DNA from: Nanobdellota archaeon
GTDB taxonomy: Archaea; Nanobdellota; Nanobdellia; Woesearchaeales; GW2011-AR9
Length of the DNA: 50,591 nt
Assembly (NCBI GenBank): GCA_040751885.1
Contig: JBFMFP010000003.1
Location: forward strand, 1-50,591
Direction: 5' to 3'
The notes under the pieces are model-generated. The model was given only the letters and a program-made list of their open reading frames with translations. It ran no database searches and was not told the DNA's origin. Positions 14,710 through 43,497 of this stretch are shown piece by piece. The position numbers and the translations under genes were made by a program. Numbering within the stretch: position 1 is the stretch's first letter; each line of letters begins with the position of its first letter.

Positions 14710-15504
14710 CTAAGAATACCTCTCAAATTTGATGTCCTCAGGTTTTACCCCGCTATTTAATAAATGCTCTTTAACAGCAGAAACCATCCCAGCCATCCCG
14801 CAGATATAAAAGGTTTTGCCTTGGGCGCTTTCCGGCAAATGTCTCTGCACTCTTCCTGTCTTGCCTGCCCACTCTTCCCTGGTTAAGGAAGGAATGTATT
14901 TAAAATTAGCATGCTTTTTCTCCATTTCCAGCAGCAAATCGTGAAAAATTAAATCCTTTTTGGTTTTTACACTGACAAGGAGAACAAATTTGCGCCGCGG
15001 AAACTTAGCCACGTTGGCAGTGATCATGTTGTATAACGGAGCTAAACCGCAGCCGCAGCCAATAAACCAATGCTCCTCATTTTTGCTCTGCTCATCAAAA
15101 ACAAAATGGCCAAACGGGCCTTTAACTTCTAATTTATCTCCTAACTTAAGCTCTTTAAACTTCCCTCCTGCAAAACCGCCTTCAATTATCTTAATTATAA
15201 AGCCTAATTTATTATCAAACTTATCTTCAGAACCGCCTGTTTTTTGTTTCTTTTTATTTCTGCTTGCAGGTTTTTTTTCCACCAATCCTTCCTGCAATTC
15301 ATTACCTTTTAACTCCGAGTCAAATATGGAATAAGAACGCGGCTTTTTAACTCCATCTCTTTCAATAACAAAAACAACAAACTGCCCGGGAATAAAAGAA
15401 AAATCTTCCGGCGCAGTGAGAGTTAATTTAATGATTTCCGGAGTAATCTGTTCTTTGCCTGTTACCGTAGCTTCAAACTCTCTTACTTTGGCTTCAAACT
15501 GCAT
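14710..15504 (-). CDS. FNR-like FAD/NAD(P)-binding oxidoreductase
   Basis: F.PGQF, RSYS, GPFG, GCGLAP, YICG, C-terminal FERYS. Confidence 0.88.
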   Translation of the reverse strand: MQFEAKVREFEATVTGKEQITPEIIKLTLTAPEDFSFIPGQFVVFVIERDGVKKPRSYSIFDSELKGNELQEGLVEKKPASRNKKKQKTGGSEDKFDNKLGFIIKIIEGGFAGGKFKELKLGDKLEVKGPFGHFVFDEQSKNEEHWFIGCGCGLAPLYNMITANVAKFPRRKFVLLVSVKTKKDLIFHDLLLEMEKKHANFKYIPSLTREEWAGKTGRVQRHLPESAQGKTFYICGMAGMVSAVKEHLLNSGVKPEDIKFERYS

Positions 15505-15575
15505 ATTATTGCTTATTTTTTACTCTTTTATAAAGGTTTGTCGGGAAGCAATACTTCTGGTTCTCTGAGGGCGCT

Positions 15576-15899
15576 TTAAAAAGAAAAGAAATGTTTCTTT
15601 AAATTAATTCTCCCGTTTATTACGGCTATCCCTTCCGCCTCCAGCCTGCCCACCTTTTTCTTAATATTTTCCTGCCCAGAGCCACAATACCCGCCAATCT
15701 CACCATTGCTCTTGACAACCTTAAAGCAGGGAATAAGCTGGGGCTCTTTGTTCATTTTTAATGCCCGCCCGACTGCACGATGAGATTTGCAACCCAATTT
15801 TTCGGCTATCGCTTTATAAGTAGTAACTTTCCCTTTTGGAATAAGTTTACATAAAGCATAAACATTCTCCACAAAGGCCGTGCTTCTTTTCCTGCTCAT
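15576..15899 (-). CDS. MGMT/Ogt-family alkylated-DNA repair protein (single domain)
   Basis: IPKGKVTTY, RAVG, IPCFKVV (variant of PCHRV), LEAEG. Confidence 0.85.
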   Translation of the reverse strand: MSRKRSTAFVENVYALCKLIPKGKVTTYKAIAEKLGCKSHRAVGRALKMNKEPQLIPCFKVVKSNGEIGGYCGSGQENIKKKVGRLEAEGIAVINGRINLKKHFFSF

Positions 15900-16336
15900 T
15901 TCCCGCTAGGATTCTGCTCCGTCGAATCCTGTCCAGCAGCCCCTCGCTCTGATTCATTGCCCAAGGCCCCTTTATTCTCTTTCGTATCCTCTGCCTGAGC
16001 ACATTTTTCCTCGCTGCATCTCTTATTATAATTCTCAATAAACTCCCTGACTTTATTTTCCCCTTTTGGCAAAGCAAACCTGCCTAAAGAATAATACTTC
16101 TTCTCTACCAGCCTTCCCCAGGAAAAATCGCCCTTCTCTTCCTCAATTTTATGCACCTCAATCTCTTTAGTCTGGATACCTTTACGCAAATGATAATAGA
16201 TGCTCCTTTGCGTCACTTTAGGGAAAACCTCATTGTAAATTTTGGCAATTTTATATCCGTAACTTTCTCCCAGGTAAAAAAGAATTTCTACAATGTTCTG
16301 CCGGATCTGGCTTTTCACAGGTCTTCCCGGAGGCAT
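15896..16336 (-). CDS. Winged-helix hypothetical protein
   Basis: GRPVKSQIRQ, YGY.IAKIY, RSIYYHL, KKYY.LG (PadR-like wHTH); ATGA overlap with the MGMT gene. Confidence 0.7.
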   Translation of the reverse strand: MPPGRPVKSQIRQNIVEILFYLGESYGYKIAKIYNEVFPKVTQRSIYYHLRKGIQTKEIEVHKIEEEKGDFSWGRLVEKKYYSLGRFALPKGENKVREFIENYNKRCSEEKCAQAEDTKENKGALGNESERGAAGQDSTEQNPSGK

Positions 16337-16582
16337 AAAGAAGGAAATAACTTCTTTTGTTTATATGCTTTTTGAATAAACCAGTAGTTGGCAAAGTTGA
16401 TAAAGCTTTGTTTTCAAAGTCTTAAAAATAAGATAGTTGTTCTCAGTTTTTCATTAAGAATTAGCTAAATCTCAATAAAAGTTGGGTAAAAGATAGAAGA
16501 AAGAGATTATCAAACACAAAAATAGTAGAAATGAGTATATTCACAGCTAACAAAATCTATTCAATTCCCGAAGAGATATTCG

Positions 16583-17978
16583 TTATCCACCGGGATCAAG
16601 ATAAGAGCAAAGCGTGTAAAGCATTACTCCGAACATCTTGGCAGTTATGAACGGTTCTTTTGGAATGAACTTCAATATTGCCAAACCAACCATAATGTTA
16701 GCCAGTATCCAGAGATTGTACAAGCATGCAGAGAACATAAAGTAGAATAATCTTACAACATAATTCTTTGATGTTGTTCTTGCTTTGAAATCCTGCTTGA
16801 CTCTGTAAGAAGTTTCTATCCCCCATCTTTTACCATATTCGCGAAATAGAATTTTTGAATTATCTTCAGTAACTCTAAGGTTTGTTGCAAATACTCTCTT
16901 GACATTTTCTTCGTCATTCACAATAGCAAGTTTGAATTTGACATGTTGGTATCTTGTATCACCCATAACATAATCGAGAATCTTAGGAGCATTGTTCTCT
17001 TTGATTAATTTTTGAATTGCTTTGTTCTGAACAGCAGGCATTAACCATTTGACTTTCTGATTGTAAAGAGTATCAATACATTTAACAGTAAAGAAACCTC
17101 TATCAACATAGACATTTCTGATGTTGATCTTGCTTTTAGCGTAAGTTATCAGTTCATCAAGAATTTTGTATTTCTCGTCAAAAGCGTGCATCGGTAAAGC
17201 AAGTAAGGTAAATCTAAGCGTGCATCGGTAAAGCAAGTAAGGTAAATCTTCTTCCATTCTCAACGATATTTATTGTGGCAAATCTGAAACAATGAGTTGT
17301 TCCATTTTGTGGTTTTGTCTAGCAAACCATGAAGTCATTTTTATTTCCATAATACAACCAGTCATGCAAGTCAATAGCAACATCTAATTTCTTCTTTTTG
17401 AAAACATTATTTTTCTTTGCTATCTTGAAAATCTCCTCGAATGCTTTTCTGAAATTCTTTCTCAATTCCTCTGTATCAGATTTTCTTATGTGGTAAAGTA
17501 GAGTATTTGAAGCAGGAGTATTTTCCTTCATTACAAATTTGAATGTCTGAGAACCATTATGCGTAAAGTCGTGATTCATCGCTACATGAGTCAATAAATC
17601 CAAGAACTTCTTTGTGTCATATTTTCCTGTGTAATGAACCTTGAAATCCAAGAATGGATAAATCGCTTCTTTGATAAGCTTGCATAGTTTCTTCAATTCC
17701 TTTGTCTTGACATTCTCTATGTCTTTGTGGTTAGACTGGAACTTGATTTGCTTAATCAGTTTTGTCGTCGGAGTAAATTTAGCGTTACAATCCTTGCATT
17801 TGTATCGTGCTTTCTTTCCTTCTTTTGTTATATTGTAGCCGAACTTTACAACATTAAAAGAACCGCAGAACCTGCAGGAAAGAGCTAAAGTCTCAGTTTT
17901 AGCAAACTTGCCGGAGCCGTCTTTAGCAATACTTTTAAATTGCTCCTTCTCCTTTATTCTATTGGTAGGGTTTTTCAT
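16583..17978 (-). pseudogene. ISH3-family (IS4 superfamily) DDE transposase with N-terminal zinc ribbon; disrupted
   Basis: VAIDLHD, VYVDRGFF, Y.KRWGIETSYR; in-frame TAG at 17319-17321 plus a 34-bp duplication frameshift. Confidence 0.88.
17182..17249. repeat. Perfect 34-bp tandem duplication inside the transposase
   Basis: aagcgtgcatcggtaaagcaagtaaggtaaatct x2. Confidence 0.95.
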
Positions 17979-17994
17979 AGCGAACGACTCTATC

Positions 17995-18029
17995 ACTGCA
18001 GGGTTGGCCTTCGAAACTAGCCCTGCAGT
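17995..18029 (-). promoter_or_regulatory. GC-rich hairpin in the transposase 5' region
   Basis: actgcaggg...ccctgcagt 9-bp perfect stem, extendable. Confidence 0.55.
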
Positions 18030-18161
18030 TTACATTTACTATTTACATATTATATACGTTATTAGTATAACTAATATTTAAATATATCGGTGGTCAACTA
18101 TATAGGTCAATAGTTAAGTTTATATATCCTTAACATATCTATTATTATAGAGGATGAGAAA

Positions 18162-18404
18162 ATGGTAGAACCTTTGCCAAAGTGGATAATGCAACGCTAC
18201 TCTGCATTATGGAACAAATTCAAGGACAGGGAGTTTAACCACGAGGAAGCTTTCAAGACTCTTAACAAGGACAAGATGCTCAGCATTGTCTTATCAGAAT
18301 TAAGACAAGCTGGATGGCTGGAAATGAAGCTTAGCCCAGAAGATGCACGCAAAAGAATCTATAAACTTAAAAGTCCAGAACAGGCTGTTAAGGAAATGGA
18401 ATAA
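18162..18404 (+). CDS. Small winged-helix (MarR-like) protein; putative controller of the R-M operon
   Basis: LSELRQAGWL..KLSPEDARKRIYKL wing motif; first gene of the operon. Confidence 0.7.
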   Translation: MVEPLPKWIMQRYSALWNKFKDREFNHEEAFKTLNKDKMLSIVLSELRQAGWLEMKLSPEDARKRIYKLKSPEQAVKEME

Positions 18405-20084
18405 GTGATTAAAATGGCACAAAATATTTTACTTGAAAAAGAACAGGAAAATCTCCATTTAAGCATGAATACTTTGAGATCTCTACCTTATGAAGATAAA
18501 GTAATAAATCAAGTAATAAACAAAATAGAACAGGAAAACTTAATTAAAATTAATGAAGATACTTTAGGACTCTTATTCGAGAAACTAATAAAAGAACAGG
18601 AAAAAAAAGATTTAGGTCAATTTTATACCCCTCAAGAAATCGTTAATTACATAATTAGTTTTCTTAACATTAAACCAAATTCAAAAATTTTAGATCCAAC
18701 CTGCGGATGCGGCGTTTTCTTAGTAACTGTACATAATTTCCTAAAACGTACAAACCCTAACGCTATTAAAAATATCTACGGTATAGACCTAAATGATTCT
18801 GCAACCAAGATAACAAGAATAAATTTATGGTTGAGGAATGGCCACAATTTAAATTCTTTAAAAATTCTTGAAAGAAATATAAAAATTGGAAATTCGATTG
18901 TAGAGAATAAGCTTATTGATAAGAAGGCATTTAATTGGAAAGAACAATTTTCAGATATTTTTGATGAAGGTGGATTTGATTTTATTATCGGAAATCCCCC
19001 TTATGTGACTCTTAAAAATGAGAGAGATTACGATATAAAAGAATCTTGTTTTTCTCAGATAGCAAATGGAAATACTAATGCGGCTTCCTTAGTTATTGTC
19101 AAGTCTTACGAATTTCTCAAAGATGGAGGAATAATGGCTTTTGTTCTTCCTAAAACATTGATTAGGGTTAACTCATATGCAAAGTTGAGAGAATTTCTGT
19201 TAAATAATTCAAAAATCTTACATATCTTTGATTTAGGAACTTGCTTTAAAGATGTTAGAGGGGAGCAAATAATCTTATTTGTGCAGAAAACACATAAGAA
19301 ACAGGATATAAATAAAAATAAGATTTTAATTCGACTATTTGAAAGCAACAAAGAATTTTACATACCACAGAATATGTTAAAGAAGCACAATGCTTTTCTG
19401 CTGTTTGAAGATAAGACTTATTATGATTTGATAGAAAAGATTGAAGGAGAAAATTTTGGCGATATAGCAAACATCTTTAGAGGCATTGCACTAAGCCCAT
19501 ATTCTAAGATAGTTTCAAAATCAAATGGCAAGAATAAAATCCCAATTATTAAAGGAAACGATATTTCCAAATTTTCACATTCTAATACCTTTTATCTTGA
19601 TGCAATAAATCTAAAGAACAATTCCTTAAAATTAAGAGAATTCGATGAACGAAAAATTATACTTCAAAACATCTTTTCAAGTGAGGCCGGAATTATTTCT
19701 TGTATAGATGAAAGCGGTGATTTGAATTTTGATACTGTAACCAATGTCGTTCTTAAGAACAAGTCTTTTGAATTGGATTATATCTACGGATTATTGAATT
19801 CAAAACTGATTAATTTCTATCTAATCTATGCAGTTTACAATAAATCAAAACTTACAATGCATACAGACAAAATTTACCTTGGAAAAATACCGATTAAAAA
19901 AACTTCAAAAAGAAACCAAAGAGAAATTGGTAACATTGCAAGAAAACTTAATCCAAAAAATGCAAAAATTCTACTGCCAAAGTTAGATGAAAAAATCTAT
20001 AATCTTTATAACATAACTAAAAGTGAGCGGGTCAGAATAGATTTTGCACTGAAACGTATAATGTCCAAAAAGAGCGTGTGGTAA
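18405..20084 (+). CDS. N6-adenine DNA methyltransferase, gamma class (TaqI-like, with C-terminal TRD)
   Basis: GQFYTP, LDPTCGCGVF, IGNPPY, GLLNSKL; real start possibly ATG 18414. Confidence 0.92.
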   Translation: MIKMAQNILLEKEQENLHLSMNTLRSLPYEDKVINQVINKIEQENLIKINEDTLGLLFEKLIKEQEKKDLGQFYTPQEIVNYIISFLNIKPNSKILDPTCGCGVFLVTVHNFLKRTNPNAIKNIYGIDLNDSATKITRINLWLRNGHNLNSLKILERNIKIGNSIVENKLIDKKAFNWKEQFSDIFDEGGFDFIIGNPPYVTLKNERDYDIKESCFSQIANGNTNAASLVIVKSYEFLKDGGIMAFVLPKTLIRVNSYAKLREFLLNNSKILHIFDLGTCFKDVRGEQIILFVQKTHKKQDINKNKILIRLFESNKEFYIPQNMLKKHNAFLLFEDKTYYDLIEKIEGENFGDIANIFRGIALSPYSKIVSKSNGKNKIPIIKGNDISKFSHSNTFYLDAINLKNNSLKLREFDERKIILQNIFSSEAGIISCIDESGDLNFDTVTNVVLKNKSFELDYIYGLLNSKLINFYLIYAVYNKSKLTMHTDKIYLGKIPIKKTSKRNQREIGNIARKLNPKNAKILLPKLDEKIYNLYNITKSERVRIDFALKRIMSKKSVW

Positions 20085-20085
20085 T

Positions 20086-20886
20086 ATGGAAAAAAGAATG
20101 AACAATTTAGACGGGAAAACGTGGTTGCAATATTCTTTTAGTATTTGGCGGGATATTGAAAAAACTAATGGAGAATGGAAATTGAAACATCCGGCAATGT
20201 TTCCCACGCAACTAACTACTAGATTAATACAGATTTATACAAAAGACAAAGGAGAAGTTATTTTAGACCCCTTTCTAGGAAGTGGAAGCACAATTGTTTC
20301 TGCGTATCAGTTGGGTAAAAAGGGTATTGGTTTTGAATTATCACCTGATTATGTAAAACTCGCAAATGAGAGAATAAAAGGAGTGCAATTGAATTTAACA
20401 CAAACACCAAAAGATTTGATTAAACCAGAGATATACAACAGAACCGTTTTTGAAATATCAAAAGTTCTTCCAGAAAATTCTGTTGATTTAGTTATAACAT
20501 CACCACCGTATTGGGACATTCTAACAGTTGAGAGATCAGCGGACAGAAAAGCAATAAGAAAATATAGCGAATCAGAAGAAGACCTAGGAAATATTCATGA
20601 TTATAACAAATTCCTAGAAAAACTAAAGGAAGCATTTAATGGTGTGTATAAAGTGTTAAAGAAAGGTAAATATTGCATTGTTGTAGTAATGGACATCAGG
20701 AAAAAATCTAACTTTTATCCATTTCACATAGATCTAATAACTAAAATGAAAGAAATCGGATTTGAACTAGATGATATTATCATATGGGATAGGCAGAAAG
20801 AGTATAACAATATGAGACCACTTGGCTATCCATTTGTTTTCAGAGTAAATAAAGTACACGAATATATTTTGATATTCAAGAAGTGA
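20086..20886 (+). CDS. Amino-DNA methyltransferase, probably N4-cytosine, with motif I before motif IV
   Basis: HPAMFP, LDPFLGSGST, then ITSPPY, IIWD, HEYILIF. Confidence 0.88.
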   Translation: MEKRMNNLDGKTWLQYSFSIWRDIEKTNGEWKLKHPAMFPTQLTTRLIQIYTKDKGEVILDPFLGSGSTIVSAYQLGKKGIGFELSPDYVKLANERIKGVQLNLTQTPKDLIKPEIYNRTVFEISKVLPENSVDLVITSPPYWDILTVERSADRKAIRKYSESEEDLGNIHDYNKFLEKLKEAFNGVYKVLKKGKYCIVVVMDIRKKSNFYPFHIDLITKMKEIGFELDDIIIWDRQKEYNNMRPLGYPFVFRVNKVHEYILIFKK

Positions 20887-21800
20887 TAAAAATGCTAAAT
20901 CCAGAAATAGCTTACTTGTTGGGGATGATTGTCGGAAAAGGACAGGTAATTCGTGGTAATAAAGAAACAGAGGTCATCATAGATATTCCCCACAAAAATT
21001 TAGTAGTCGAAGGTGAGGATACCCAACAATCAATAAAAGCAAGTCTGCTGGACATTGTTGGCAGATTAAGGCCGTTAGTTGGTGCAGACATGAGTTGGGA
21101 TACTTCAAAACCTAATGTTGCCCATATAACTTTCTCTAAACCAAATGGAGATTATCTAATCAGGACAATCAATGCGTATCTCAAAAATAAAACCAGCTGG
21201 AGAGACTTTAGAATACCTGAAGAGATATCCACTGCCCAAACTGACATCAAAAAGGAATTTTTACGCGGACTTGCTGACGTAACGGCTCATATAAGGAAAA
21301 GTAATGTTGCTTGGAAGGATTTTGAATATAGGGTTTATGTTGAAATAATGACAAACTGGGAGTTATGCATAGATATAGCCAATTTATTAAAAGGGCTAGA
21401 TGTTCCGGTCCATACAATTAGATTTGCACATCCGAATATAGTGGATCCAACTCTAAAATTCTATAATAGAGGTATGAGAAATTACAAAGAGCATCAAATT
21501 AAAGTTTGGGCAGAAGAGTTTGAGAAAATTGGGTTTAACATAGAACATAAAAATAGATTATTAAAGAGATTTGCTGATCTTAACAGAAAAAATTGGAAAA
21601 AGTATGCTTCCAAATCCAAAAAATACAAAGGTAAACCAATTTCAGAAGTTCATCACAGATATTATTGGGAAACAAAAGAAATCGAGAAAAGAAAACAAAA
21701 ACATCCGGATGAAAATCACCCATCAATACATCCAAAGATAAGAGGAAGGCATTTTGACAGCTGGAAAGATATAGCAAAGGAGTTAGGTTACCATGAGTAA
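20883..21800 (+). CDS. LAGLIDADG-like two-motif protein; putative large/specificity subunit of a restriction enzyme
   Basis: EIAYLLGMIVGKG and RIPEEI...KKEFLRGLADVTA, then ELCIDIANLLKGLDV. Confidence 0.6.
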   Translation: MIKMLNPEIAYLLGMIVGKGQVIRGNKETEVIIDIPHKNLVVEGEDTQQSIKASLLDIVGRLRPLVGADMSWDTSKPNVAHITFSKPNGDYLIRTINAYLKNKTSWRDFRIPEEISTAQTDIKKEFLRGLADVTAHIRKSNVAWKDFEYRVYVEIMTNWELCIDIANLLKGLDVPVHTIRFAHPNIVDPTLKFYNRGMRNYKEHQIKVWAEEFEKIGFNIEHKNRLLKRFADLNRKNWKKYASKSKKYKGKPISEVHHRYYWETKEIEKRKQKHPDENHPSIHPKIRGRHFDSWKDIAKELGYHE

Positions 21801-22275
21801 AGAAGAAGAAAGATTATATCCAGAAATTAAAGAATGGCTACAGAATTATTTAATTGACAAATATAGAGGTTATACAGTAGAAACTACTTTTGAAACATCA
21901 AGAAGAAATTTAGACATCGTTTTGAAAAGTAAGAGAATCGAATGTAAAGAAGCAGTAGGTCTACAAGTTAAAATCGATGTTATAGGTATTTTGAAGAGAG
22001 GCGATGACTTTAAACTTGTGTTTGTTGAAGTAAAAGACAAAGAGTTGACACTTAAAGATTTAGGTCAGCTATGGGGTTATACTCAGTTAATCGATCCGAT
22101 AGAATCTTTCTTGGTGTCATCGAAAGGATTGGGTAGATTATCACATTTGTTTAATGTTTTGAGAAGAGAAGACTTATTGAAATTTGGAACAAAAACAAAT
22201 AAATTTATGCAAATAGCAAAATGGGATAAAAGGAGGGGTTGCATTGATTATTCGAGTTTAGTTCCTAAACTATAG
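21793..22275 (+). CDS. Small PD-(D/E)XK nuclease; putative restriction subunit
   Basis: KIDVIG...VFVEVK...LGQLWGY (Mrr/NucS-like QxxxY); 8-bp overlap with the upstream gene. Confidence 0.72.
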   Translation: MSKEEERLYPEIKEWLQNYLIDKYRGYTVETTFETSRRNLDIVLKSKRIECKEAVGLQVKIDVIGILKRGDDFKLVFVEVKDKELTLKDLGQLWGYTQLIDPIESFLVSSKGLGRLSHLFNVLRREDLLKFGTKTNKFMQIAKWDKRRGCIDYSSLVPKL

Positions 22276-22282
22276 AGTAAGT

Positions 22283-23062
22283 TTATTTAGCCTCTTTCCA
22301 TCTTTCAGAAAATAAATCTTTCATTGAAGATGCTACCTCGCTAATTTCTCGTATTGTGGCGTCCTTATTGCCTAAATCTTTAATACTACTTCCAATTGAC
22401 CAACATTTATTACCTTCAATGATAAAGCGGTCATGAATCTTTTGATTGATTTTTACCTCTATCTGTATTCCAAGCTCCTTACTCAGTTTTTTCTTGTAGT
22501 CTTCAAATTTATCTGAATCATAAATGTTTGTAGTCAATAGCTTCAACGATTTTATTTTTCCCTTCAATACAGAAAAGGGAAACAGTGTAGAATGTGAGAC
22601 ATGAGAATCGCACAGCAATATTTCTTCACCGTTAAACTGAGAAGTTAAAAATTCTTCAAATAATTTTATAGCAGTAAAATTTTCACCAGATTTTATTACA
22701 TAAACTGGCGACTTGCCAACTTGACCCAAAATATTTCTTATCTTTTTCAAACCACCACTTAAGAAATAGAGGTTTTTGTCTTTTTCTTTTAGAATAGACT
22801 TCTTTTTGGCTTGATATACATTCACTTTGAAATTATCATCTTTTTTGCCAAAAGATACAAACAAATCTTTAACCTCATTATAATTGGCACCGGCTTCCTG
22901 CTTTGCATTTTCTATCAAATAAATAGAAACTAAAATGACATCTAAATCAGTAAGAGAATCGCCTACAATAAGCGTATTGTGATGTTTCTGTATCAATCCA
23001 GACATTTCTGGAGGAATCTCTACTTTGGATTCACTTTTCTTTTTTGAGGTCATTTTTAACAA
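22283..23062 (-). CDS. wHTH-like plus PLD-like (HDRF) domain protein
   Basis: ILLCDSH...LLT...IHDRFII...WSIGSSIKDLG. Confidence 0.65.
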   Translation of the reverse strand: MLKMTSKKKSESKVEIPPEMSGLIQKHHNTLIVGDSLTDLDVILVSIYLIENAKQEAGANYNEVKDLFVSFGKKDDNFKVNVYQAKKKSILKEKDKNLYFLSGGLKKIRNILGQVGKSPVYVIKSGENFTAIKLFEEFLTSQFNGEEILLCDSHVSHSTLFPFSVLKGKIKSLKLLTTNIYDSDKFEDYKKKLSKELGIQIEVKINQKIHDRFIIEGNKCWSIGSSIKDLGNKDATIREISEVASSMKDLFSERWKEAK

Positions 23063-23429
23063 ACCTTTCTCCTGTGCTGGTTAAAGTCCATGCCTTAAAC
23101 TTATCTTTCTTTTCTTTAGCTTCCATCATGTAACCGCTTTTTATATTCTGAATTACTTTGTAATTTACATTATCTGGTACTTTCTCTTTTGCATCCCTAA
23201 ACCCATCCTCAACATCTTTGGCGTTGTAAATATTCATGCCTTTATACTTTTCAAGGTAGTAGCAGACTACCAATGTTCTTTGAACATCATCTTTAGGTTT
23301 TTTAGAAAGAAGAAACTCTTTTATGGAAATCTGTTTCTTCCCACTTTTCACATCTGATTTAGGTATGCCTTCCAACACCCTTATTCGCTTTTCATAGTCA
23401 TCAAGAATTCGTTTGGTTTCCTCGTCCAT
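23031..23429 (-). CDS. Winged-helix protein with N-terminal short coiled coil
   Basis: YEKRIRVLE; LVVCYYL; KSGYM...WTLTSTGERFV wing. Confidence 0.7.
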   Translation of the reverse strand: MDEETKRILDDYEKRIRVLEGIPKSDVKSGKKQISIKEFLLSKKPKDDVQRTLVVCYYLEKYKGMNIYNAKDVEDGFRDAKEKVPDNVNYKVIQNIKSGYMMEAKEKKDKFKAWTLTSTGERFVKNDLKKEK

Positions 23430-23438
23430 ATTGTTACC

Positions 23439-23846
23439 TCATTTCTTTTGTTTAGTTCCCAAGACATCGTCAAATATTTCTTTTATTCTGTGGTAAGCTA
23501 CTCTGTATTTCTTTCCTGGAAGATATTCGACATATCCCTTGTTTACCAGTTCCTTCATGTTTCCGGAAAGAGTAGTCATCGGTCTACCAATTTCCTTAGC
23601 TATTTCAGATATGCTTAGTGAAGGGTTTTCTATCATACTAAGCCTATTAGCAAAATACTTACCCAATAAAACTATTGCTATCCTCTGCTTATCATTTAAT
23701 GTGCCAAAGTTCTGGAAGATTATCTTACCTGAAGGTTTCTCAATCCTGAAATGTTTAGACGCCTCTCCGACTAGTTTTTCCATTTCTTTAGTTATGTCCT
23801 TTTCTTCAACTACGAGTTTCTTTAAAATCTCATTTTCTTCTGTCAT
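23439..23846 (-). CDS. Winged-helix protein
   Basis: LSISEIAKEIGRPMTTLSGNMKELVNKGYV. Confidence 0.75.
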   Translation of the reverse strand: MTEENEILKKLVVEEKDITKEMEKLVGEASKHFRIEKPSGKIIFQNFGTLNDKQRIAIVLLGKYFANRLSMIENPSLSISEIAKEIGRPMTTLSGNMKELVNKGYVEYLPGKKYRVAYHRIKEIFDDVLGTKQKK

Positions 23847-23983
23847 ATTAATTTACCCCCATTTCTTACGAAATTTACTTTTCTGACATTATAAACTTTA
23901 GAAACCACAAGTATTTAAATCTTTATGTCCTGAACCCTAAAATTTAGTTGATGGCACCGTCAACTTTGCCAACTACTGTAAAC

Positions 23984-24156
23984 GGCACAGTCCGTTTCGT
24001 GAGTGATTGCTGGAGTCAGACCAACCGAAAACCCGATGTTTTTTGAGAAGTATAATCGTCGTTTATCTTTATTGTTTTCGGACCTTAATCCCCAGTATAT
24101 TGCCCTTTTGGTCGGACATTCTTGGCCTTGCCATCACTCACTTTTTGGACTGTGCC
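23984..24156. mobile_element. MITE, 173 bp, with IS1595-like ends
   Basis: 24-bp imperfect TIR GGCACAGTCC-N5-GTGAGTGAT at both ends; 8-bp TSD GAATAAAC at 24157-24164 and 16374-16381 (left copy displaced by the larger transposon). Confidence 0.85.
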
Positions 24157-24260
24157 GAATAAACAGCTTTTAAATTCTCTTTGAATAAACAGACAAACAT
24201 ATACAATAAATAGGGCTATTTTATATACATAAGCCCCTATGGAAACTGCGGTGGTGTATT

Positions 24261-24491
24261 ATGAAATCATTTATACTTATTTCCCTGAATGAAGGATTTA
24301 GTAAAGGCGTTATTGATGATTTGAAGGACTACCCGCAAGTTAAAGATGTACATTTCATCTTCGGCGAATGGGATCTTATTGCTGAGGTGGAAGTGGCTAA
24401 TTCTGAAGAGCTCTATTCCTTTGTGGTAGATAAGCTTAGAGCCAGGGGAGATGTAAAACTGACCAGCAGCCTGATCGTTGCCGGGCAATAA
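24261..24491 (+). CDS. Lrp/AsnC ligand-binding (RAM) domain protein
   Basis: VHFIFGEWDLIAEV...LR...V..TSSLI. Confidence 0.85.
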   Translation: MKSFILISLNEGFSKGVIDDLKDYPQVKDVHFIFGEWDLIAEVEVANSEELYSFVVDKLRARGDVKLTSSLIVAGQ

Positions 24492-24522
24492 ATTTAAGTA
24501 TTCTTCTTTTTTTATTTTAGTA

Positions 24523-24846
24523 ATGCCTAAATTAATGCTCCCAAAAAAACAAAAAGAAATAGCCGGAATAGCCAGAGAAAGGATTAAAATATTATTTCAG
24601 CAGGCAGAGGATACTTTTTCTGAAAACAGAGCCTTATCTAACCGTTATGTAGCTTTAGCAAGAAAAATTGCCATGAAAGTAAAAGTAAAAATCCCCATTC
24701 ATCTAAAAAGAAAATTCTGCAAGCACTGCCGCAGCTTTTTAATGCCGGGAGTAAATTCCAGAATCAGGACGAGGAAGGGCAGGGTAGTTATCTCCTGCTT
24801 TGAGTGTAAGAAGTTTATGAGGATACCGGTTAAAGACAAATTGTGA
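24523..24846 (+). CDS. rnp4: RNase P protein Rpp21
   Basis: IARERI, RYV.LARKI, KRKFCKHC...PG...C..C; start reassigned to ATG 24523. Confidence 0.9.
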   Translation: MPKLMLPKKQKEIAGIARERIKILFQQAEDTFSENRALSNRYVALARKIAMKVKVKIPIHLKRKFCKHCRSFLMPGVNSRIRTRKGRVVISCFECKKFMRIPVKDKL

Positions 24847-25047
24847 ACCAGAGTCAGCAGGGCATAACTTTTCGCATCATTCCCCCAAACGGAAGTCAAT
24901 ACTGAGCAATTTAATGAGCGCAAAGGTAAAGATTAGTGATACTGGGGTGAAAGTATTAAAATCACGACAAACGTAATTAAAAAAGTATTAGTTTATACTT
25001 CTAAAATAGAAAAGTTTATAAATAATGAATACAAACAACAATTAAAA

Positions 25048-26397
25048 ATGAATAAAGAAATACAACTGTTAATAAAAATATGCAAAACTAATAAGAACGT
25101 ATTTTCGCCCGATGAGTTAGCGGCAGCCCTAAACCTTAAGTACAGGGAAGGCGTTTATCCCTATGTACGAAAACTGCAAGAGCAGCAGCTCTTAATAAAA
25201 GAAGAGCGCGGAACATTTATCTTAAATGAAGATGATGAGCGGGTAAAAACCATAAAATTCTTCTTAAGCTTATTTGGCGCAAATACTGAGGTACTTTTTA
25301 GCAATCATACCAAACGAATTTTAGAAAAGTTCAGCGTTAATCCCATACTTAAAGCCTCTGATCTTCCGCAGCATAACCTCAAGAAAATAAAAGACATAGC
25401 TAGAAAAACGAGGATCATTCACACCACGAAAGACGGCCGTGCTGGTGTTTATTTCATCCGTTCTTGGGAGGAACCAGTTAAAAAGCTATTAGAATTTTTC
25501 AACATTGAGCTGAAATTTGATGACGAAGAATTCAAGCATCAAATCATTAAAGCGTATTCCATATTTACCGGAAAGCAAGCTCATCTTACCGATGAAAAAC
25601 AACAGGAATTGGCAAGGCTAAACTTGCAGTACTATTTTGAAGGCAAAGATTTTATTCTCAATAAGTTGAAAAATGTAATTTTAGCAGAAACTGCGTTCTT
25701 GGATGTTCTCACTAAAGAAAAACTCAAGCGCGTTATAAACCCGTTTGAAATAACAAAAAAAATAAATGAATGGAAAATAAAATATGTTTATAATACTGAT
25801 AAAATCGAAGGGAACATATTGACTTTTGATGAAGTTAAAACAGGATTAACCAAGGGATGGGAAGGAATAAAAAAAGAAAAAAAATGGATTCTGGAAACAG
25901 AAAATTCAAAAAAAGCAGTAGAAAACATTTTTGATACGACAAACGAATTGACATTAGAGTTTATACAAAACCTACATTTTATTACTCAGCAAGGTATTGA
26001 TGAAAGCGCTGGACAATATAAACAGGAAGAAAACTGCATCATAGATGCAGGCGGCACGCTTATTGATAATACTACCCCGGCTAAATTTGTTGAAGAACGA
26101 CTTAGCAGTCTTGTCAAATGGTATAAGGACAATGAAAAGAAACTTCACCCCATTGTTTTAGCAAGTATCTTCCATAATCAATTTGTCTATATCCATCCAT
26201 TTGAAGATGGCAATGGCAGAGTTTCTCGGCTTTTGCTCAATTTTGTACTAATAAAACATGGCTTTTTTCCAGTAATAATTTTTAATGATGAAAAACACAG
26301 ATACTACAGCGCTTTAAGACAATCAAAAGAAGGTGACATTAAGCCGTTCATAATGTACCTATCTGATGTTTATAGAACACAATTGGAGTTGTTTTAA
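25048..26397 (+). CDS. Fic-family protein with N-terminal wHTH
   Basis: HPFEDGNGRVSR catalytic motif; TDKIEG autoinhibitory motif. Confidence 0.9.
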   Translation: MNKEIQLLIKICKTNKNVFSPDELAAALNLKYREGVYPYVRKLQEQQLLIKEERGTFILNEDDERVKTIKFFLSLFGANTEVLFSNHTKRILEKFSVNPILKASDLPQHNLKKIKDIARKTRIIHTTKDGRAGVYFIRSWEEPVKKLLEFFNIELKFDDEEFKHQIIKAYSIFTGKQAHLTDEKQQELARLNLQYYFEGKDFILNKLKNVILAETAFLDVLTKEKLKRVINPFEITKKINEWKIKYVYNTDKIEGNILTFDEVKTGLTKGWEGIKKEKKWILETENSKKAVENIFDTTNELTLEFIQNLHFITQQGIDESAGQYKQEENCIIDAGGTLIDNTTPAKFVEERLSSLVKWYKDNEKKLHPIVLASIFHNQFVYIHPFEDGNGRVSRLLLNFVLIKHGFFPVIIFNDEKHRYYSALRQSKEGDIKPFIMYLSDVYRTQLELF

Positions 26398-40493: not shown

Positions 40494-43427
40494 TCAACGA
40501 TCTTTTTGATTCAAACGAGTTGCGGCAAACGAGTCGCGGCGCAGTGAAAAGATTTCTTTTAGCTTTTCATCGTCCAGCTCCGTTAAAGCTGCCCCGCCTT
40601 TGGCTAAGACCACATTAGAAAGGGCGCTTTTCGCTTCCAGCAGCTCATCAATTTTTTCTTCTATGGTTCCAGAAGTGATGTACTTGTATATAAAAACATT
40701 TCTCTGTTGCCCAATTCGGTAAGCTCGATCAGCAGCTTGGTTTTCCACGGCCGGATTCCACCAGCGGTCAAAATGAATGACTTGGTTTGCAGCAGTAAGA
40801 TTTATTCCTAATCCCCCTGCTTTTAATGAGAGAACAAATATTTTTGGCTTGTTCTCGTTCTGGAACATGGCAATCATTTTTTCTCTTTCTTTTCTGCTGG
40901 TCTGCCCGTGCAGAAATAAAACTGGCTCGCTAAAATATTCTTCCAGAGTTTGTTTTAAAATGGCACCCATTTCCCGAAATTGCGTAAAGATGAGGCATTT
41001 TTCGTTGTTCTGCAGGAATATTTCTACCATTTCACAGAGCCGTTCCAGTTTCCCGGACCTCCCCAGAAATTTACTCTGCGTATCCTTAAGAAGATTGGTG
41101 GGATGATTGCATATCTGCTTAAGTTTTATGATAGTGGCAAGAATGTGCATTCTTCTGTTTTCTGCAGATTCTTTTATTTTTGATAAAGATTCGTCCAGCA
41201 CTGCCTGATAGAGAGTAGCTTGCTCTTCGGTGAGGGGGCAGTATTCTTTAATTTCTGTTTTTTCAGGAAGGTCCTGGATAATCTTTTTATCCGTCTTAAG
41301 CCGGCGCAGGATAAAAGGAGCGAGTATTTTTCTGAGCCTGATGGTCTTTTCCGCATCGGCATTAAGCTCGATGGGCTCAGCAAAACTTCTCTTGAAGTTC
41401 TCCCAGCTGGAGAGCAGCCAGGAGTTAGAAAAATTCATCAGCGACCATAGTTCAGAAAGCCGGTTTTCGATGGGGGTTCCAGTTAAACAAAGCCGATGCT
41501 GGGCAGAAAGTTGTCCGATTGAAATTGCCTGAATAGTATAAGGGTTCTTAATGTTCTGGGCTTCGTCAAGAATGACAACCTCCCACAAAATTCCGGCAAA
41601 TTCAGTTTTATCTCTTCTTAGTGTGCCATAACTGGTTATAACGACATCTGCTGAAGAAACTTTAGCATTGAAATTGCATTTTTTTCGCATTAGGCCGTGA
41701 TGGAGGTAAACTGCCAGCGATGGAGAAAATTTTTGCAGTTCATGTTCCCAGTTACCAATAACAGAAGTTGGCGCGATGATTAAGGAAGGTTTTTTCACTG
41801 CAGCCTGCTTCAAATAAAGCAAATAAGAAATAGCCTGAATAGTTTTTCCCAAGCCCATGTCATCAGCCAAGATGCCGCCAAATCCCAATTTTCTCAATAG
41901 GATCAGCCAGGAATACCCTTCTCGTTGGTATTTCCGCAGCTGCCCGCAAAATGCTTCTGGTTGTTTTTCCAGGCTGGTACTGCGGCTACTCAAAAAAGCC
42001 CGACCCCATTCTTCCGGAAAATTTTTAGTTTCCAGCGCAAATTCAACCTCTCCAGAAGCGCCGGCATAGATTACTTCAGAGAGAGAAAGCTGCTTCTTTT
42101 TCTCAAAGAAAGAGATTACTTTCTTAACATCATCGGGATTTACCTCTACCCATTTTCCGTTAACACAGACCAACTCAGATTTCTGGCGGCTAAGTTGATA
42201 AAATTCTTCATTTGTGAGAGTAAGGCTGTCACCTACAGCAATTTCATAATCAAAATCAAACAGAGCACTAGAAAAACAGTTGATGCTGGCAGTTTTCAGG
42301 ATTTTTGGCTTTTTAAAATTAACCATCACCCGGAGAGAATTAAGTTTTGCAGAAGTTATTTTGGGAATGTGTACCACAAAGCCAAAGTCTTTCAACATGA
42401 AAGAATCTGATTTAATGAAGGAGAGCGCTTCATTTTCAGAGAGCAAAATAGAAGAAGGGTTCGGTTTTAGCATTGATTTCTCGATAAATTTAGAACATTT
42501 TGCAGCCATCCCCAATTCCTGAATGAAATATAATTTATAATTTTGGAGAGCTATTTTTTTCTTATTTTCCCAAATATCTTTTAAGCTAATTAGCAAGCTC
42601 GGGTCATTTTTTGATTGAAGATAATAGCTCAATTGCCAACCCTTTTCGTGCTCGTCCGGTTCTTTGAGCTTAAATAGAAGGTAATATCCCTGCATTTTTC
42701 CCACATTCCTTGTAGTTACCCATTCCGAGAGGCTTTTTGTTAGCGCCTCATCCACTTTAGACCTTTCTTTACACAAGCCATAAATCCATTTATCAGAGGG
42801 GGTTGCCGGGATTTCCCCGATTTTGAGGTCTTTAACGAATTCACGGATAAGGTAATCAGTAAATTCGCTTAGGAAAGCATGGAGGGCTTCTTCCATCGGC
42901 CGGGCATCTTTAGCCGTGATAGATTTTGGCAGTTCATTACACAGGCTTTTGAAAATAAGAAAATCATCATGGTTATCAAGGTTGACCTGAAAAAAGCTTT
43001 TACCTTCCCGATGAAAAGGGATAAATCTTTGTCTGGCGATGAGGCTATAAGTAAACTGCACTGCCCTCTTAAATCCTTCATAGGAGTCACCAAAATAAAA
43101 TCCTGCTTTTTTTTCGGATAGAAGAAACTCATCTTTAAGTATCTTGAAATCCAAAATAAAGCTGTCTACTAAAAATTTCTTCTTTGTGAGCAAGGTATGA
43201 TCTTCATATTGCCCATAGGATAACTTTAATTCGTTTGATACCATGATAGACCCATTAGATGCCGGAAGTTCCAGTTCTATTTTAGCAGGGGCTGGGTCAG
43301 ATAAAGAGAAAAGCTTGTTCCAAATAGCATAAAGCCTGTTTTTGGGTACAAACTGCTCTTCTGGATGCGAAGAAATTCCCCAAAGATATGTTTTCCCATT
43401 ACTTATGGTTAGTTGCAGTTCATCCAT
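40494..43427 (-). CDS. SNF2-family helicase/translocase
   Basis: LADDMGLGKT, DEAQ, TGTP.EN, RRLK, WWNPAVE.QA.DRAYRIGQ. Confidence 0.95.
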   Translation of the reverse strand: MDELQLTISNGKTYLWGISSHPEEQFVPKNRLYAIWNKLFSLSDPAPAKIELELPASNGSIMVSNELKLSYGQYEDHTLLTKKKFLVDSFILDFKILKDEFLLSEKKAGFYFGDSYEGFKRAVQFTYSLIARQRFIPFHREGKSFFQVNLDNHDDFLIFKSLCNELPKSITAKDARPMEEALHAFLSEFTDYLIREFVKDLKIGEIPATPSDKWIYGLCKERSKVDEALTKSLSEWVTTRNVGKMQGYYLLFKLKEPDEHEKGWQLSYYLQSKNDPSLLISLKDIWENKKKIALQNYKLYFIQELGMAAKCSKFIEKSMLKPNPSSILLSENEALSFIKSDSFMLKDFGFVVHIPKITSAKLNSLRVMVNFKKPKILKTASINCFSSALFDFDYEIAVGDSLTLTNEEFYQLSRQKSELVCVNGKWVEVNPDDVKKVISFFEKKKQLSLSEVIYAGASGEVEFALETKNFPEEWGRAFLSSRSTSLEKQPEAFCGQLRKYQREGYSWLILLRKLGFGGILADDMGLGKTIQAISYLLYLKQAAVKKPSLIIAPTSVIGNWEHELQKFSPSLAVYLHHGLMRKKCNFNAKVSSADVVITSYGTLRRDKTEFAGILWEVVILDEAQNIKNPYTIQAISIGQLSAQHRLCLTGTPIENRLSELWSLMNFSNSWLLSSWENFKRSFAEPIELNADAEKTIRLRKILAPFILRRLKTDKKIIQDLPEKTEIKEYCPLTEEQATLYQAVLDESLSKIKESAENRRMHILATIIKLKQICNHPTNLLKDTQSKFLGRSGKLERLCEMVEIFLQNNEKCLIFTQFREMGAILKQTLEEYFSEPVLFLHGQTSRKEREKMIAMFQNENKPKIFVLSLKAGGLGINLTAANQVIHFDRWWNPAVENQAADRAYRIGQQRNVFIYKYITSGTIEEKIDELLEAKSALSNVVLAKGGAALTELDDEKLKEIFSLRRDSFAATRLNQKDR

Positions 43428-43497
43428 TTTTTATGTCTTGCTGCATAATTTTCTGATTGTTAACTTTCCTTCTAATTGTTAACCCCCTTTCTAATTG

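Follow-up and report, generated by a model that had tools for sequence, protein, structure and literature searches.

The window analysed here is a stretch of 50,591 nucleotides, the whole of contig C69 (JBFMFP010000003.1) in a metagenome-assembled genome (MAG) of 1.42 Mb and 142 contigs that is 94% complete. Between positions 16382 and 23978 lies an element of 7,597 bp, bounded by perfect terminal inverted repeats (TIRs) and a target-site duplication (TSD), which contains one transposase gene, a small winged-helix (wHTH) gene and seven cargo genes. We take this element, with high confidence, to be a cargo-carrying transposon of the insertion sequence (IS) type with a single transposase, a 'transporter IS' (tIS), whose transposase lies in or next to the ISH3 family. 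The features of its ends, its core and its immediate target are:

16374-16381, left copy of the 8-bp duplication, GAATAAAC, of a miniature inverted-repeat transposable element (MITE)
16377-16381, left copy of the 5-bp TSD, TAAAC
16382-16400, left TIR, 19 bp
16583-17263, minus strand, C-terminal part of the transposase (DDE_Tnp_1; ISH3 profile positions 122-295; contains YGKRWGIETSYR)
17182-17215 and 17216-17249, perfect 34-bp tandem duplication in the transposase gene, which shifts the frame and is absent from four of four aligned relatives
17319-17321, TAG stop codon, at a position where four of four aligned relatives have GAG or GAA
17319-17996, minus strand, N-terminal part of the transposase (Zn ribbon; ISH3 profile positions 25-85)
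18162-18404, plus strand, wHTH protein of 80 aa, divergent from the transposase and beside it in every relative
23932-23959, conserved subterminal sequence of about 28 bp at the cargo-side end, which can form a hairpin, AGTTGA-N8-TCAACT, with the inner part of the TIR
23960-23978, right TIR, 19 bp
23979-23983, right copy of the TSD, TAAAC
23984-24156, the MITE, 173 bp
24157-24164, right copy of the MITE duplication GAATAAAC, intact

The left TIR, in the context TTTTTGAATAAAC/CAGTAGTTGGCAAAGTTGA, starts with CAGT, and the right TIR (TCAACTTTGCCAACTACTG/TAAACGGCACAG) is the reverse complement of CAGTAGTTGGCAAAGTTGA, the arms being complementary at 19 of 19 positions. The two copies of TAAAC abut both arms. 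With up to three mismatches allowed, the 19-mer was found at two places in the window, both of them the TIRs, against 0.01 matches expected (none of 100 shuffles reached two). A preceding sequence-only reading of this DNA, which had described perfect 19-bp TIRs starting with CAG and a 5-bp TSD, was confirmed on both counts. In the genome, searched with up to four mismatches, the exact 19-mer occurred only at the two TIRs, and the six other matches all had four mismatches; this search revealed no separate IS ends around the transposase gene. The element is single-copy: blastn against its own genome returned the self-match only, and there is no flanking second IS, as had also been claimed. The GC content of the element is 32.3%, as compared to 37.5% for the 3-kb flanks.

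Directly to the right of the element is the 173-bp repeat, with imperfect inverted ends of about 28 bp (GGCACAGTCC...GGACTGTGCC). About 10 copies or fragments of this repeat, 77-99% identical, were detected by blastn on other contigs of the same genome (C99, C122, C89, C1, C59, C63, C75, C107 and C56). Because each of the seven further copies of full length lies between 8-bp direct repeats, the 173-bp repeat is a MITE that generates 8-bp target duplications; no parent IS was identified for it. At the window locus, what lies between the left GAATAAAC and the MITE is precisely the 7.6-kb element and the second TAAAC, and the left copy of TAAAC is itself the last 5 bp of that left duplication. 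Removal of 16382-23983, that is, of the element and one TAAAC, rebuilds a normal MITE insertion with its 8-bp duplication. Thus, the MITE is the older of the two, and the 7.6 kb entered in one event. We conclude that the 7,597 bp arrived as a single insertion into the last five bases of the left duplication of the MITE, an empty-site proof that is internal to the locus. The reverse order, with the element in place before the MITE, predicts a MITE duplication ending in the terminal bases of the element, which was not seen. The sequence-only reading had proposed GAATAAAC/GGCACAGTCC as the empty site of the transposon; this is where the older MITE meets the 8-bp duplication of its own target. Its proposal of a unit (tIS) transposon by which all the passengers were moved in one block is upheld by the TSD together with the rebuilt MITE duplication. 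Rfam (E up to 0.1) and tRNA scans of 15000-25500 and of the window found nothing, which means that the MITE corresponds to no known RNA and that the insertion did not target a tRNA gene. A near-repeat of 22 nt, 86% identical and ending in TTTGAATAAAC, is present at 16360-16381 and at 24169-24190, on either side of the site occupied by the MITE and the transposon; before the insertions, a short AT-rich motif was apparently present in duplicate in the target region.

The transposase is encoded by a single gene, now split into two open reading frames (ORFs) by the TAG nonsense codon and the 34-bp tandem duplication; the first 16 residues of the C-terminal ORF are out-of-frame read-through of the duplication. 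In two relatives, at loci L012 and L037 (see below), the transposase ORF is uninterrupted, with 459 and 455 aa, respectively. The halves of the window transposase scored 102 and 35.9 bits against the ISH3 model of NCBIfam, NF033541. Intact relatives scored 174.4, 182.2 and 182.2 bits over profile positions 25-297 of 298, with the next-best model, IS4, at 27-35 bits. The part of De Palmenaer, Siguier & Mahillon (2008, PMC2266710) that treats the ISH3 family gives a length of 1,225-1,500 bp, ends with the consensus CRGT, duplications of 4-5 bp and a Y-(2)-R-(3)-E-(3)-R motif. This motif is found, as YGKRWGIETSYR, both in the C-terminal ORF of the window and in the intact L012 protein, and the ends (CAGT), the 5-bp TSD and the archaeal host also agree with membership. 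The size does not, since described members carry a transposase only, whereas the window element has 7,597 bp with eight further genes and relatives in which a transposase gene, whether intact or damaged, is still present have 5,270-13,056 bp. ISH3 being the best profile match, although below the NCBIfam cut-off, the transposase appears to belong to, or to lie next to, the ISH3 family, and the ISH3-like label of the sequence-only reading can be kept.

Because the transposase is inactivated at two places, the element is probably no longer autonomous and is most likely immobile now unless a transposase is supplied in trans; the window copy is a recently decayed, probably immobile, member of its family. 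The ends are indeed intact, as had been noted; that description did not extend to the transposase. Elsewhere in the genome the only other transposase match is a distant ISH3-like transposase at positions 979-1536 of contig C128, with an open frame of 366 aa that is 26-28% identical to the window transposase. This is a different IS, with relatives in two of 40 related genomes.

The exact 19-mer was searched in one genome per species (596 Gb), in metagenomes and in viral contigs. The genome scan returned 31 loci, of which 20 are family ends and 11 are unrelated, mostly bacterial genes; by our arithmetic, chance alone would account for about four matches in 596 Gb. Family ends were told apart from chance matches by the sequence just inside the TIR, a rule under which L028 and L051 are borderline. 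By the same subterminal rule, 52 of the 65 metagenome loci are family ends, and one variant was added by eye; the other 12-13 loci were set aside. No match was found in the viral contigs. Family ends thus occur at 72 or more loci, and the genome loci are mostly in DPANN MAGs. The host labels of the 20 genome loci comprise Woesearchaeota, Pacearchaeota, Nanoarchaeota, Aenigmarchaeota, Parvarchaeota, Micrarchaeota, Thermoplasmata, Methanobacteriota and 'uncultured archaeon', with one 'uncultured bacterium'. Assemblies produced independently in other studies show this architecture as well. At four of the metagenome loci (L059, L074, L084 and L102) the 19-mer, with 0-3 mismatches, is part of a tandem array of about 630-bp repeats unrelated to the transposon; the array is probably a repeat-protein gene and a source of false positives in scans for the TIR.

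Nine complete elements were delimited, including that of the window, with lengths from 1.5 to 13 kb. The other eight are:

L012, Aenigmatarchaeota MAG: 5,423 bp; no flanking repeat; transposase intact; cargo of a radical S-adenosylmethionine (SAM) enzyme, a carbamoyltransferase and an ATP-grasp enzyme
L021, Nanoarchaeota MAG: 6,752 bp; flanking repeat not assessable (contig end); transposase ORF of 454 aa; cargo of a Y-polymerase fragment and an HMA-methyltransferase
L036, Pacearchaeota MAG: 13,056 bp; ATAAA; transposase frameshifted; cargo of a ResIII helicase and a methyltransferase, an MNT/HEPN-like pair (PDC-M05), a transglutaminase-like protein, an RNase H and a split methyltransferase
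L037, Woesearchaeota MAG: 7,226 bp; CTTAA; transposase intact; cargo of a 1,501-aa DUF4011/MTES_1575 helicase-nuclease (PADLOC PDC-S37 over its full length, 1,169 bits) and a Cas4-like nuclease
L064, metagenome: 5,270 bp; AGGT (4 bp); transposase N-terminally deleted; cargo of a B12 radical-SAM enzyme
L066, metagenome: 4,828 bp; ATTTTT on both sides (6 bp); transposase deleted; cargo of Trp/Tyr-tRNA-synthetase-like genes
L097, metagenome: 3,274 bp; TATAA; transposase deleted; cargo of a P-type ATPase
L073, metagenome: 1,490 bp; AGCCA/AACCA (4/5 match); no transposase; a single GHKL-like ORF

Perfect 5-bp TSDs (TAAAC, ATAAA, CTTAA and TATAA) flank four of the eight assessable elements, the window's included; the other four have one 4-bp repeat, one 6-bp repeat, one 4/5 match and, in one case, no repeat. 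That the same TIRs enclose different cargo elsewhere, a check suggested by the sequence-only reading, is borne out by eight further complete elements with unrelated cargo, three of them with perfect 5-bp TSDs, and the TIR search in general gave only the two TIRs in the element's own genome next to a widely distributed family outside it. Further cargo was seen at L070 (at least 10 kb, with a TGT-like protein and a 1,864-aa DEAD/MZB/PLD protein), L072 (an Eco57I/TaqI_C methyltransferase) and L038 (an SNF2-PLD helicase). Defence-type cargo is common in the family and not exclusive. In four pairs of loci (L096/L098, L067/L096, L008/L070 and L073/L075), cargo that is 84-87% similar lies by the right end and the outer flanks are unrelated, indicating that the same cargo-bearing element sits at different sites. 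The L012 element lies immediately next to the stop codon of a gene for SAM synthetase (L012:5516-7996); this gene, of 826 aa, has a LAGLIDADG-type intein by sequence.

Since the wHTH gene is conserved next to the transposase gene in every relative, we assign it to the core of the element, which leaves seven cargo genes. The count of one transposase and eight passengers in the sequence-only reading was right in that there is a single transposase gene, but that gene is split into two broken ORFs and one of the eight is not a passenger. In three deletion derivatives (L060, L066 and L097) the wHTH gene is kept and the transposase lost. The right end is conserved family-wide over 47 bp, comprising the 28 bp of subterminal sequence and the 19-bp right TIR. 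At the transposase-side end, where 1-2 mismatches in the TIR also occur, the TIR is followed by TAAAGCTTTG or TAAATCTATTGG, and at the cargo-side end by about 28 conserved bases; a short hairpin-forming sequence lies beside the TIR at both ends. When the window element was compared with all loci by blastn, homology was confined to 16382-~18416 and 23932-23978, with none in the 5.5-kb cargo between. Likewise, when all 10 window proteins were compared with the family loci by tblastn, no others than the transposase and the wHTH protein were matched, distant methyltransferase similarities excepted. Even L012 and L062, whose core DNA is about 87% identical to that of the window (94-95% in protein for the transposase halves), have unrelated cargo. 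The left border of this cargo slot falls within the last wHTH codons, after GTTAARGAAATG (window 18390-18416; L012:2060-2080), and the right border 27-28 nt inside the right TIR (window 23932-23959; L012:5466-5496); neither border shifts by more than a few bases from member to member. Compared by eye, the sequences at the two slot borders resemble each other too weakly for a shared core sequence to be claimed.

The element has one transposase, carries its passengers inside one pair of TIRs and lacks flanking IS copies, as a tIS does. The TSD across the whole element, the rebuilt TSD of the MITE, the TSDs of the relatives and the shared cargo ends at unrelated flanks all point to movement as a unit. 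As read from its members' sequences, the family is a DPANN-wide, ISH3-like tIS with invariant ends, a conserved wHTH partner, a sharply bounded slot and fast turnover of cargo. Its core consists of the 19-bp left TIR, a DDE transposase of about 455 aa with an N-terminal Zn ribbon, and the divergent wHTH gene; the variable slot opens at the last wHTH codons, and the conserved right end closes the element. By analogy with the ISH3 family, the transposase would bind the two ends and excise or copy everything between them, and insertion would proceed by a 5-bp staggered cut, with the contents of the slot travelling along. In the present case, one block of 7,597 bp entered a DPANN chromosome at a resident MITE, within the left copy of the target duplication of that MITE, bringing with it a four-gene module of the restriction-modification (R-M) type and a three-gene operon for a helix-turn-helix (HTH) protein, a protein without family match and a PLD-like protein; the nonsense codon and the 34-bp duplication were acquired in the transposase gene after insertion. 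Two further ideas are put forward as speculation. The family might be a specialised archaeal gene-shuttle that has a site-specific slot for cargo built into it, rather than an IS that chanced to gain genes, although we think this improbable. There is a similarly slender chance that the pattern at the slot reflects active integron-like, or recombination-hotspot, cassette exchange in DPANN archaea, in which the wHTH protein would take part or drive expression of the cargo.

A different history could also place one transposase and a cargo between the two TIRs. An IS of about 2 kb, made up of the transposase and wHTH genes, may have landed beside a pre-existing island, with the distal 19-bp repeat being the solo end of another copy, so that the 7.6 kb never moved whole. 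Cargo-side ends that look solo do occur in the family, at L038, L039 and L040, with no transposase within 13.3, 14.4 and 4 kb, respectively, and no cargo-less IS with which to calibrate the minimal element was seen among the loci examined. However, the same TAAAC is present at both outer junctions and the MITE duplication is rebuilt when the 7.6 kb and one TAAAC are taken out, unlike what two independent insertions would give. Moreover, three other complete elements with unrelated cargo have perfect 5-bp TSDs over their full length, and the conservation of the right end extends over 47 bp family-wide. We regard such a two-step origin as very unlikely. The low GC content and the defence-type genes are also features of many integrated elements, and the 7.6 kb could in principle be a small provirus, a plasmid remnant or a casposon-like element with inverted ends, into which the ISH3-like gene inserted secondarily. 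Yet the genes of the element include none for replication, packaging, an integrase or Cas1, the 19-mer is absent from viral contigs, the transposase gene lacks separate IS ends around it, and in the relatives the transposase and wHTH genes lie at a fixed distance from the same end while the rest varies. This explanation seems to us the least likely of those considered.

It also has to be asked whether the locus is real as assembled. In a MAG of 142 contigs, different populations may be joined at repeated ends, or sequence collapsed or duplicated; misassembly is classically encountered at IS ends and MITEs, and an assembler could have introduced an exact 34-bp tandem duplication by mistake, so that the position of the element, the duplication or the stop codon might not be real. 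Against this, the TIR occurs nowhere else in the assembly, which leaves no repeat to mis-join, the two junctions are mutually consistent through the TSD and the MITE duplication, and the architecture is found again in assemblies made independently. An artefact is thus hardly probable. Several observations nevertheless count against the interpretation of the 7.6 kb as an ISH3-like tIS that moves defence cargo. A single MAG assembly underlies both junctions, the 34-bp duplication and the TAG codon. The 40 relatives that were searched belong without exception to other genera and have no close homologue of the transposase, which precluded an empty-site comparison at the DNA level. Among the eight assessable elements, L012 lacks a TSD and L073 has an imperfect one. 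The intact transposases of the family, at 174-182 bits, score below the NCBIfam cut-off for ISH3, which is 225 bits. With the transposase broken at two places and no close intact copy in the genome, present-day mobility is unsupported. No cargo-less, 'naked' IS of the family was found among the loci examined. Finally, the defence function of both operons is deduced from families and folds only, and is weakly supported for the second.

The first cargo operon of the window comprises four genes:

18405-20084, plus strand, gamma-class N6-adenine DNA methyltransferase (Eco57I/N6_Mtase/TaqI_C, E 2e-33; PADLOC MTase_II)
20086-20886, plus strand, beta-class N6/N4 DNA methyltransferase (N6_N4_Mtase, E 3e-35)
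20883-21800, plus strand, 302/305-aa protein with a LAGLIDADG homing-endonuclease fold (predicted structure; no Pfam family)
21793-22275, plus strand, 160-aa protein with a PD-(D/E)xK restriction-endonuclease fold (invariant D62, E79 and K81)

The structure predicted for the 302-aa form of the LAGLIDADG-fold protein, with a predicted local-distance difference test (pLDDT) score of 89.4, matched PI-SceI (E 3.5e-7) and also I-DmoI, and I-Tsp061I with a template-modelling (TM) score of 0.68 on target. In an alignment inspected by eye, its two canonical acidic positions are occupied by K16 and T131, suggesting that the protein may be a DNA-binding rather than a catalytic subunit. The structure predicted for the 160-aa protein (pLDDT 92.9) matched PaqCI (Z 9.1, root-mean-square deviation of 3.8 Å over 128 aligned residues) as well as AF1548 (Z 8.5) and NucS (Z 8.0), with a best Foldseek E of only 4e-3. 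It is by this predicted fold that the protein is assigned to PD-(D/E)xK, as Pfam, NCBIfam, PADLOC and PDB-chain sequence searches matched no restriction-endonuclease family in the module. Pfam, NCBIfam and PADLOC returned nothing for the 305-aa and 160-aa proteins or for the 132-aa protein of the second operon, and PDB-chain sequence searches with the 305-aa and 160-aa proteins and the 259-aa protein of the second operon gave nothing meaningful. Homologues with E up to 0.001 numbered 695 for the 305-aa and 248 for the 160-aa protein, all of them unnamed, from archaea and some bacteria; the two often share contigs, as in the adjacent Woesearchaeota genes HYV80_04820 and HYV80_04825. Within the phylum the 305-aa protein was found in four of 401 genomes, the window's included. 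The four genes occur in the same order, with 51-86% protein identity, at L110 (G251:C43:7207-11055) and L111 (G307:C60:165-4071), and as a decayed copy at L109 (G213:C2); neither the family TIR nor the transposase was found on the contigs of these three loci. As the module recurs elsewhere without these ends, it is self-contained and was captured by the element. With two methyltransferases and a putative nuclease of predicted PD-(D/E)xK fold, it is reasonable to call the cargo R-M-like, and the module could represent a type of R-M system in which a LAGLIDADG scaffold supplies DNA recognition.

The second cargo operon lies on the opposite strand:

22283-23062, minus strand, 259-aa protein with a PLD-like C-terminal domain (partial match to PADLOC PDC-S05)
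23031-23429, minus strand, 132-aa protein with no family match
23439-23846, minus strand, 135-aa TrmB/MarR-like HTH regulator

Residues 121-244 of the 259-aa protein, its C-terminal half only, aligned with positions 160-277 of the 285 of PDC-S05 (E 1e-12). Relatives of this protein were detected in 26 of the 401 genomes of the phylum, with only the C-terminal domain in common, at 28-38% identity, and a conserved three-gene system could not be demonstrated among them. The 259-aa protein also resembles PLD/NgoFVII-type clusters, at the level of a lead only (score 0.77). A role of this operon in defence would be a guess. Where the sequence-only reading saw two defence-like operons, the first may be retained as R-M-like, while the second, with its partial PDC-S05 match and PLD-like domain, is only weakly defence-like.

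The insertion is intergenic, between an ogt-containing gene cluster and the gene for RNase P component 4. Genes in the flanks code for aRF1 (420 bits; cut-off 234.7), RadA (456 bits), RNase P component 4, an archaeal MinD and SecD/F. The nearest named relatives of aRF1, with 76-82% identity, are from Nanoarchaeota, Nanoarchaeia and Woesearchaeota MAGs, and the related genomes have 0.7-1.7 Mb, compared to 1.42 Mb here. These data support the view that the host is a DPANN archaeon of the Woesearchaeota/Nanoarchaeota type, in agreement with the host suggested by the sequence-only reading. Elsewhere in the window, at 40494-45966 on the minus strand, the gene for a 977-aa SNF2 helicase (SCO1167-like, with ZorD/DrmD-like regions) adjoins that for an 822-aa protein with a sacsin-like HATPase domain; the two may form a defence pair of the host chromosome.

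According to a passage of Krupovic et al. 2019 (PMC6563490), passenger-carrying transposons were not detected in archaea, and in the relevant entry of a 2021 TnCentral preprint (10.1101/2021.05.26.445724) tIS are restricted to IS1595 and IS66; a section of Varani et al. 2021 (PMC7986276) uses the term more broadly. In a 2026 survey of archaeal IS (PMC13343696) the word 'passenger' is absent and 'cargo' occurs twice, both times in the reference list. Our literature search, which covered ISH3 with passengers, ISH3, IS and R-M in DPANN and defence transposons of Woesearchaeota, with ISfinder and paper supplements outside its scope, returned no description of the present family. This is, apparently, a widespread and undescribed archaeal family with the same ends and transposase and different passengers. 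Should the statements of 2019 and 2021 still hold, the tIS described so far would be joined by an archaeal family of the ISH3 type. Little is known about the ways in which DPANN archaea, host-dependent organisms with tiny genomes, gain and swap accessory genes; the family provides a concrete vehicle, whose cargo includes R-M systems, helicase-nucleases that are candidates for defence, toxin-antitoxin pairs and genes of metabolism. Its invariant ends are a sequence handle for mining cargo, including defence genes as yet undescribed, from metagenomes, and could serve in a transposon tool for archaea in which genetic manipulation is difficult.

The best profile for the transposases of the family is ISH3, at scores below the cut-off, and the family shares with ISH3 the Y-(2)-R-(3)-E-(3)-R motif, CAGT ends, 4-5-bp duplications and archaeal hosts. 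It differs in having a cargo slot and lengths of 1.5-13 kb instead of the transposase-only format, an additional N-terminal Zn-ribbon region of about 150 aa in the transposase, the 80-aa wHTH partner, and DPANN hosts. The hosts of ISH3 named in the sections concerned of PMC2266710 are haloarchaea and Sulfolobales, and passenger genes are noted there only for the IS231 subgroup of IS4, with lengths of 1,450-5,400 bp reached through extra DNA with passenger genes inside the ends. IS231 resembles the present family in its large size range and in an IS4-related transposase superfamily, but in the latter the slot is placed by the far end, past a conserved accessory gene. With tIS the family shares the IS structure (one transposase, TIRs, a target duplication), passenger genes and the lack of flanking IS copies; it is set apart by being ISH3-like and archaeal, and by a cargo that reaches about 11 kb and turns over among elements with 87% DNA identity in their cores. 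Tn7 relies on a multi-protein machinery of TnsA, TnsB, TnsC and target selectors and on specific attachment sites, whereas the present family has a single DDE transposase and short AT-rich targets. Variable cargo rich in defence systems is reported for Tn7-like transposons (PMC8649781), and Tn7 elements in archaea are reported in a 2025 preprint (10.1101/2025.07.27.667033).

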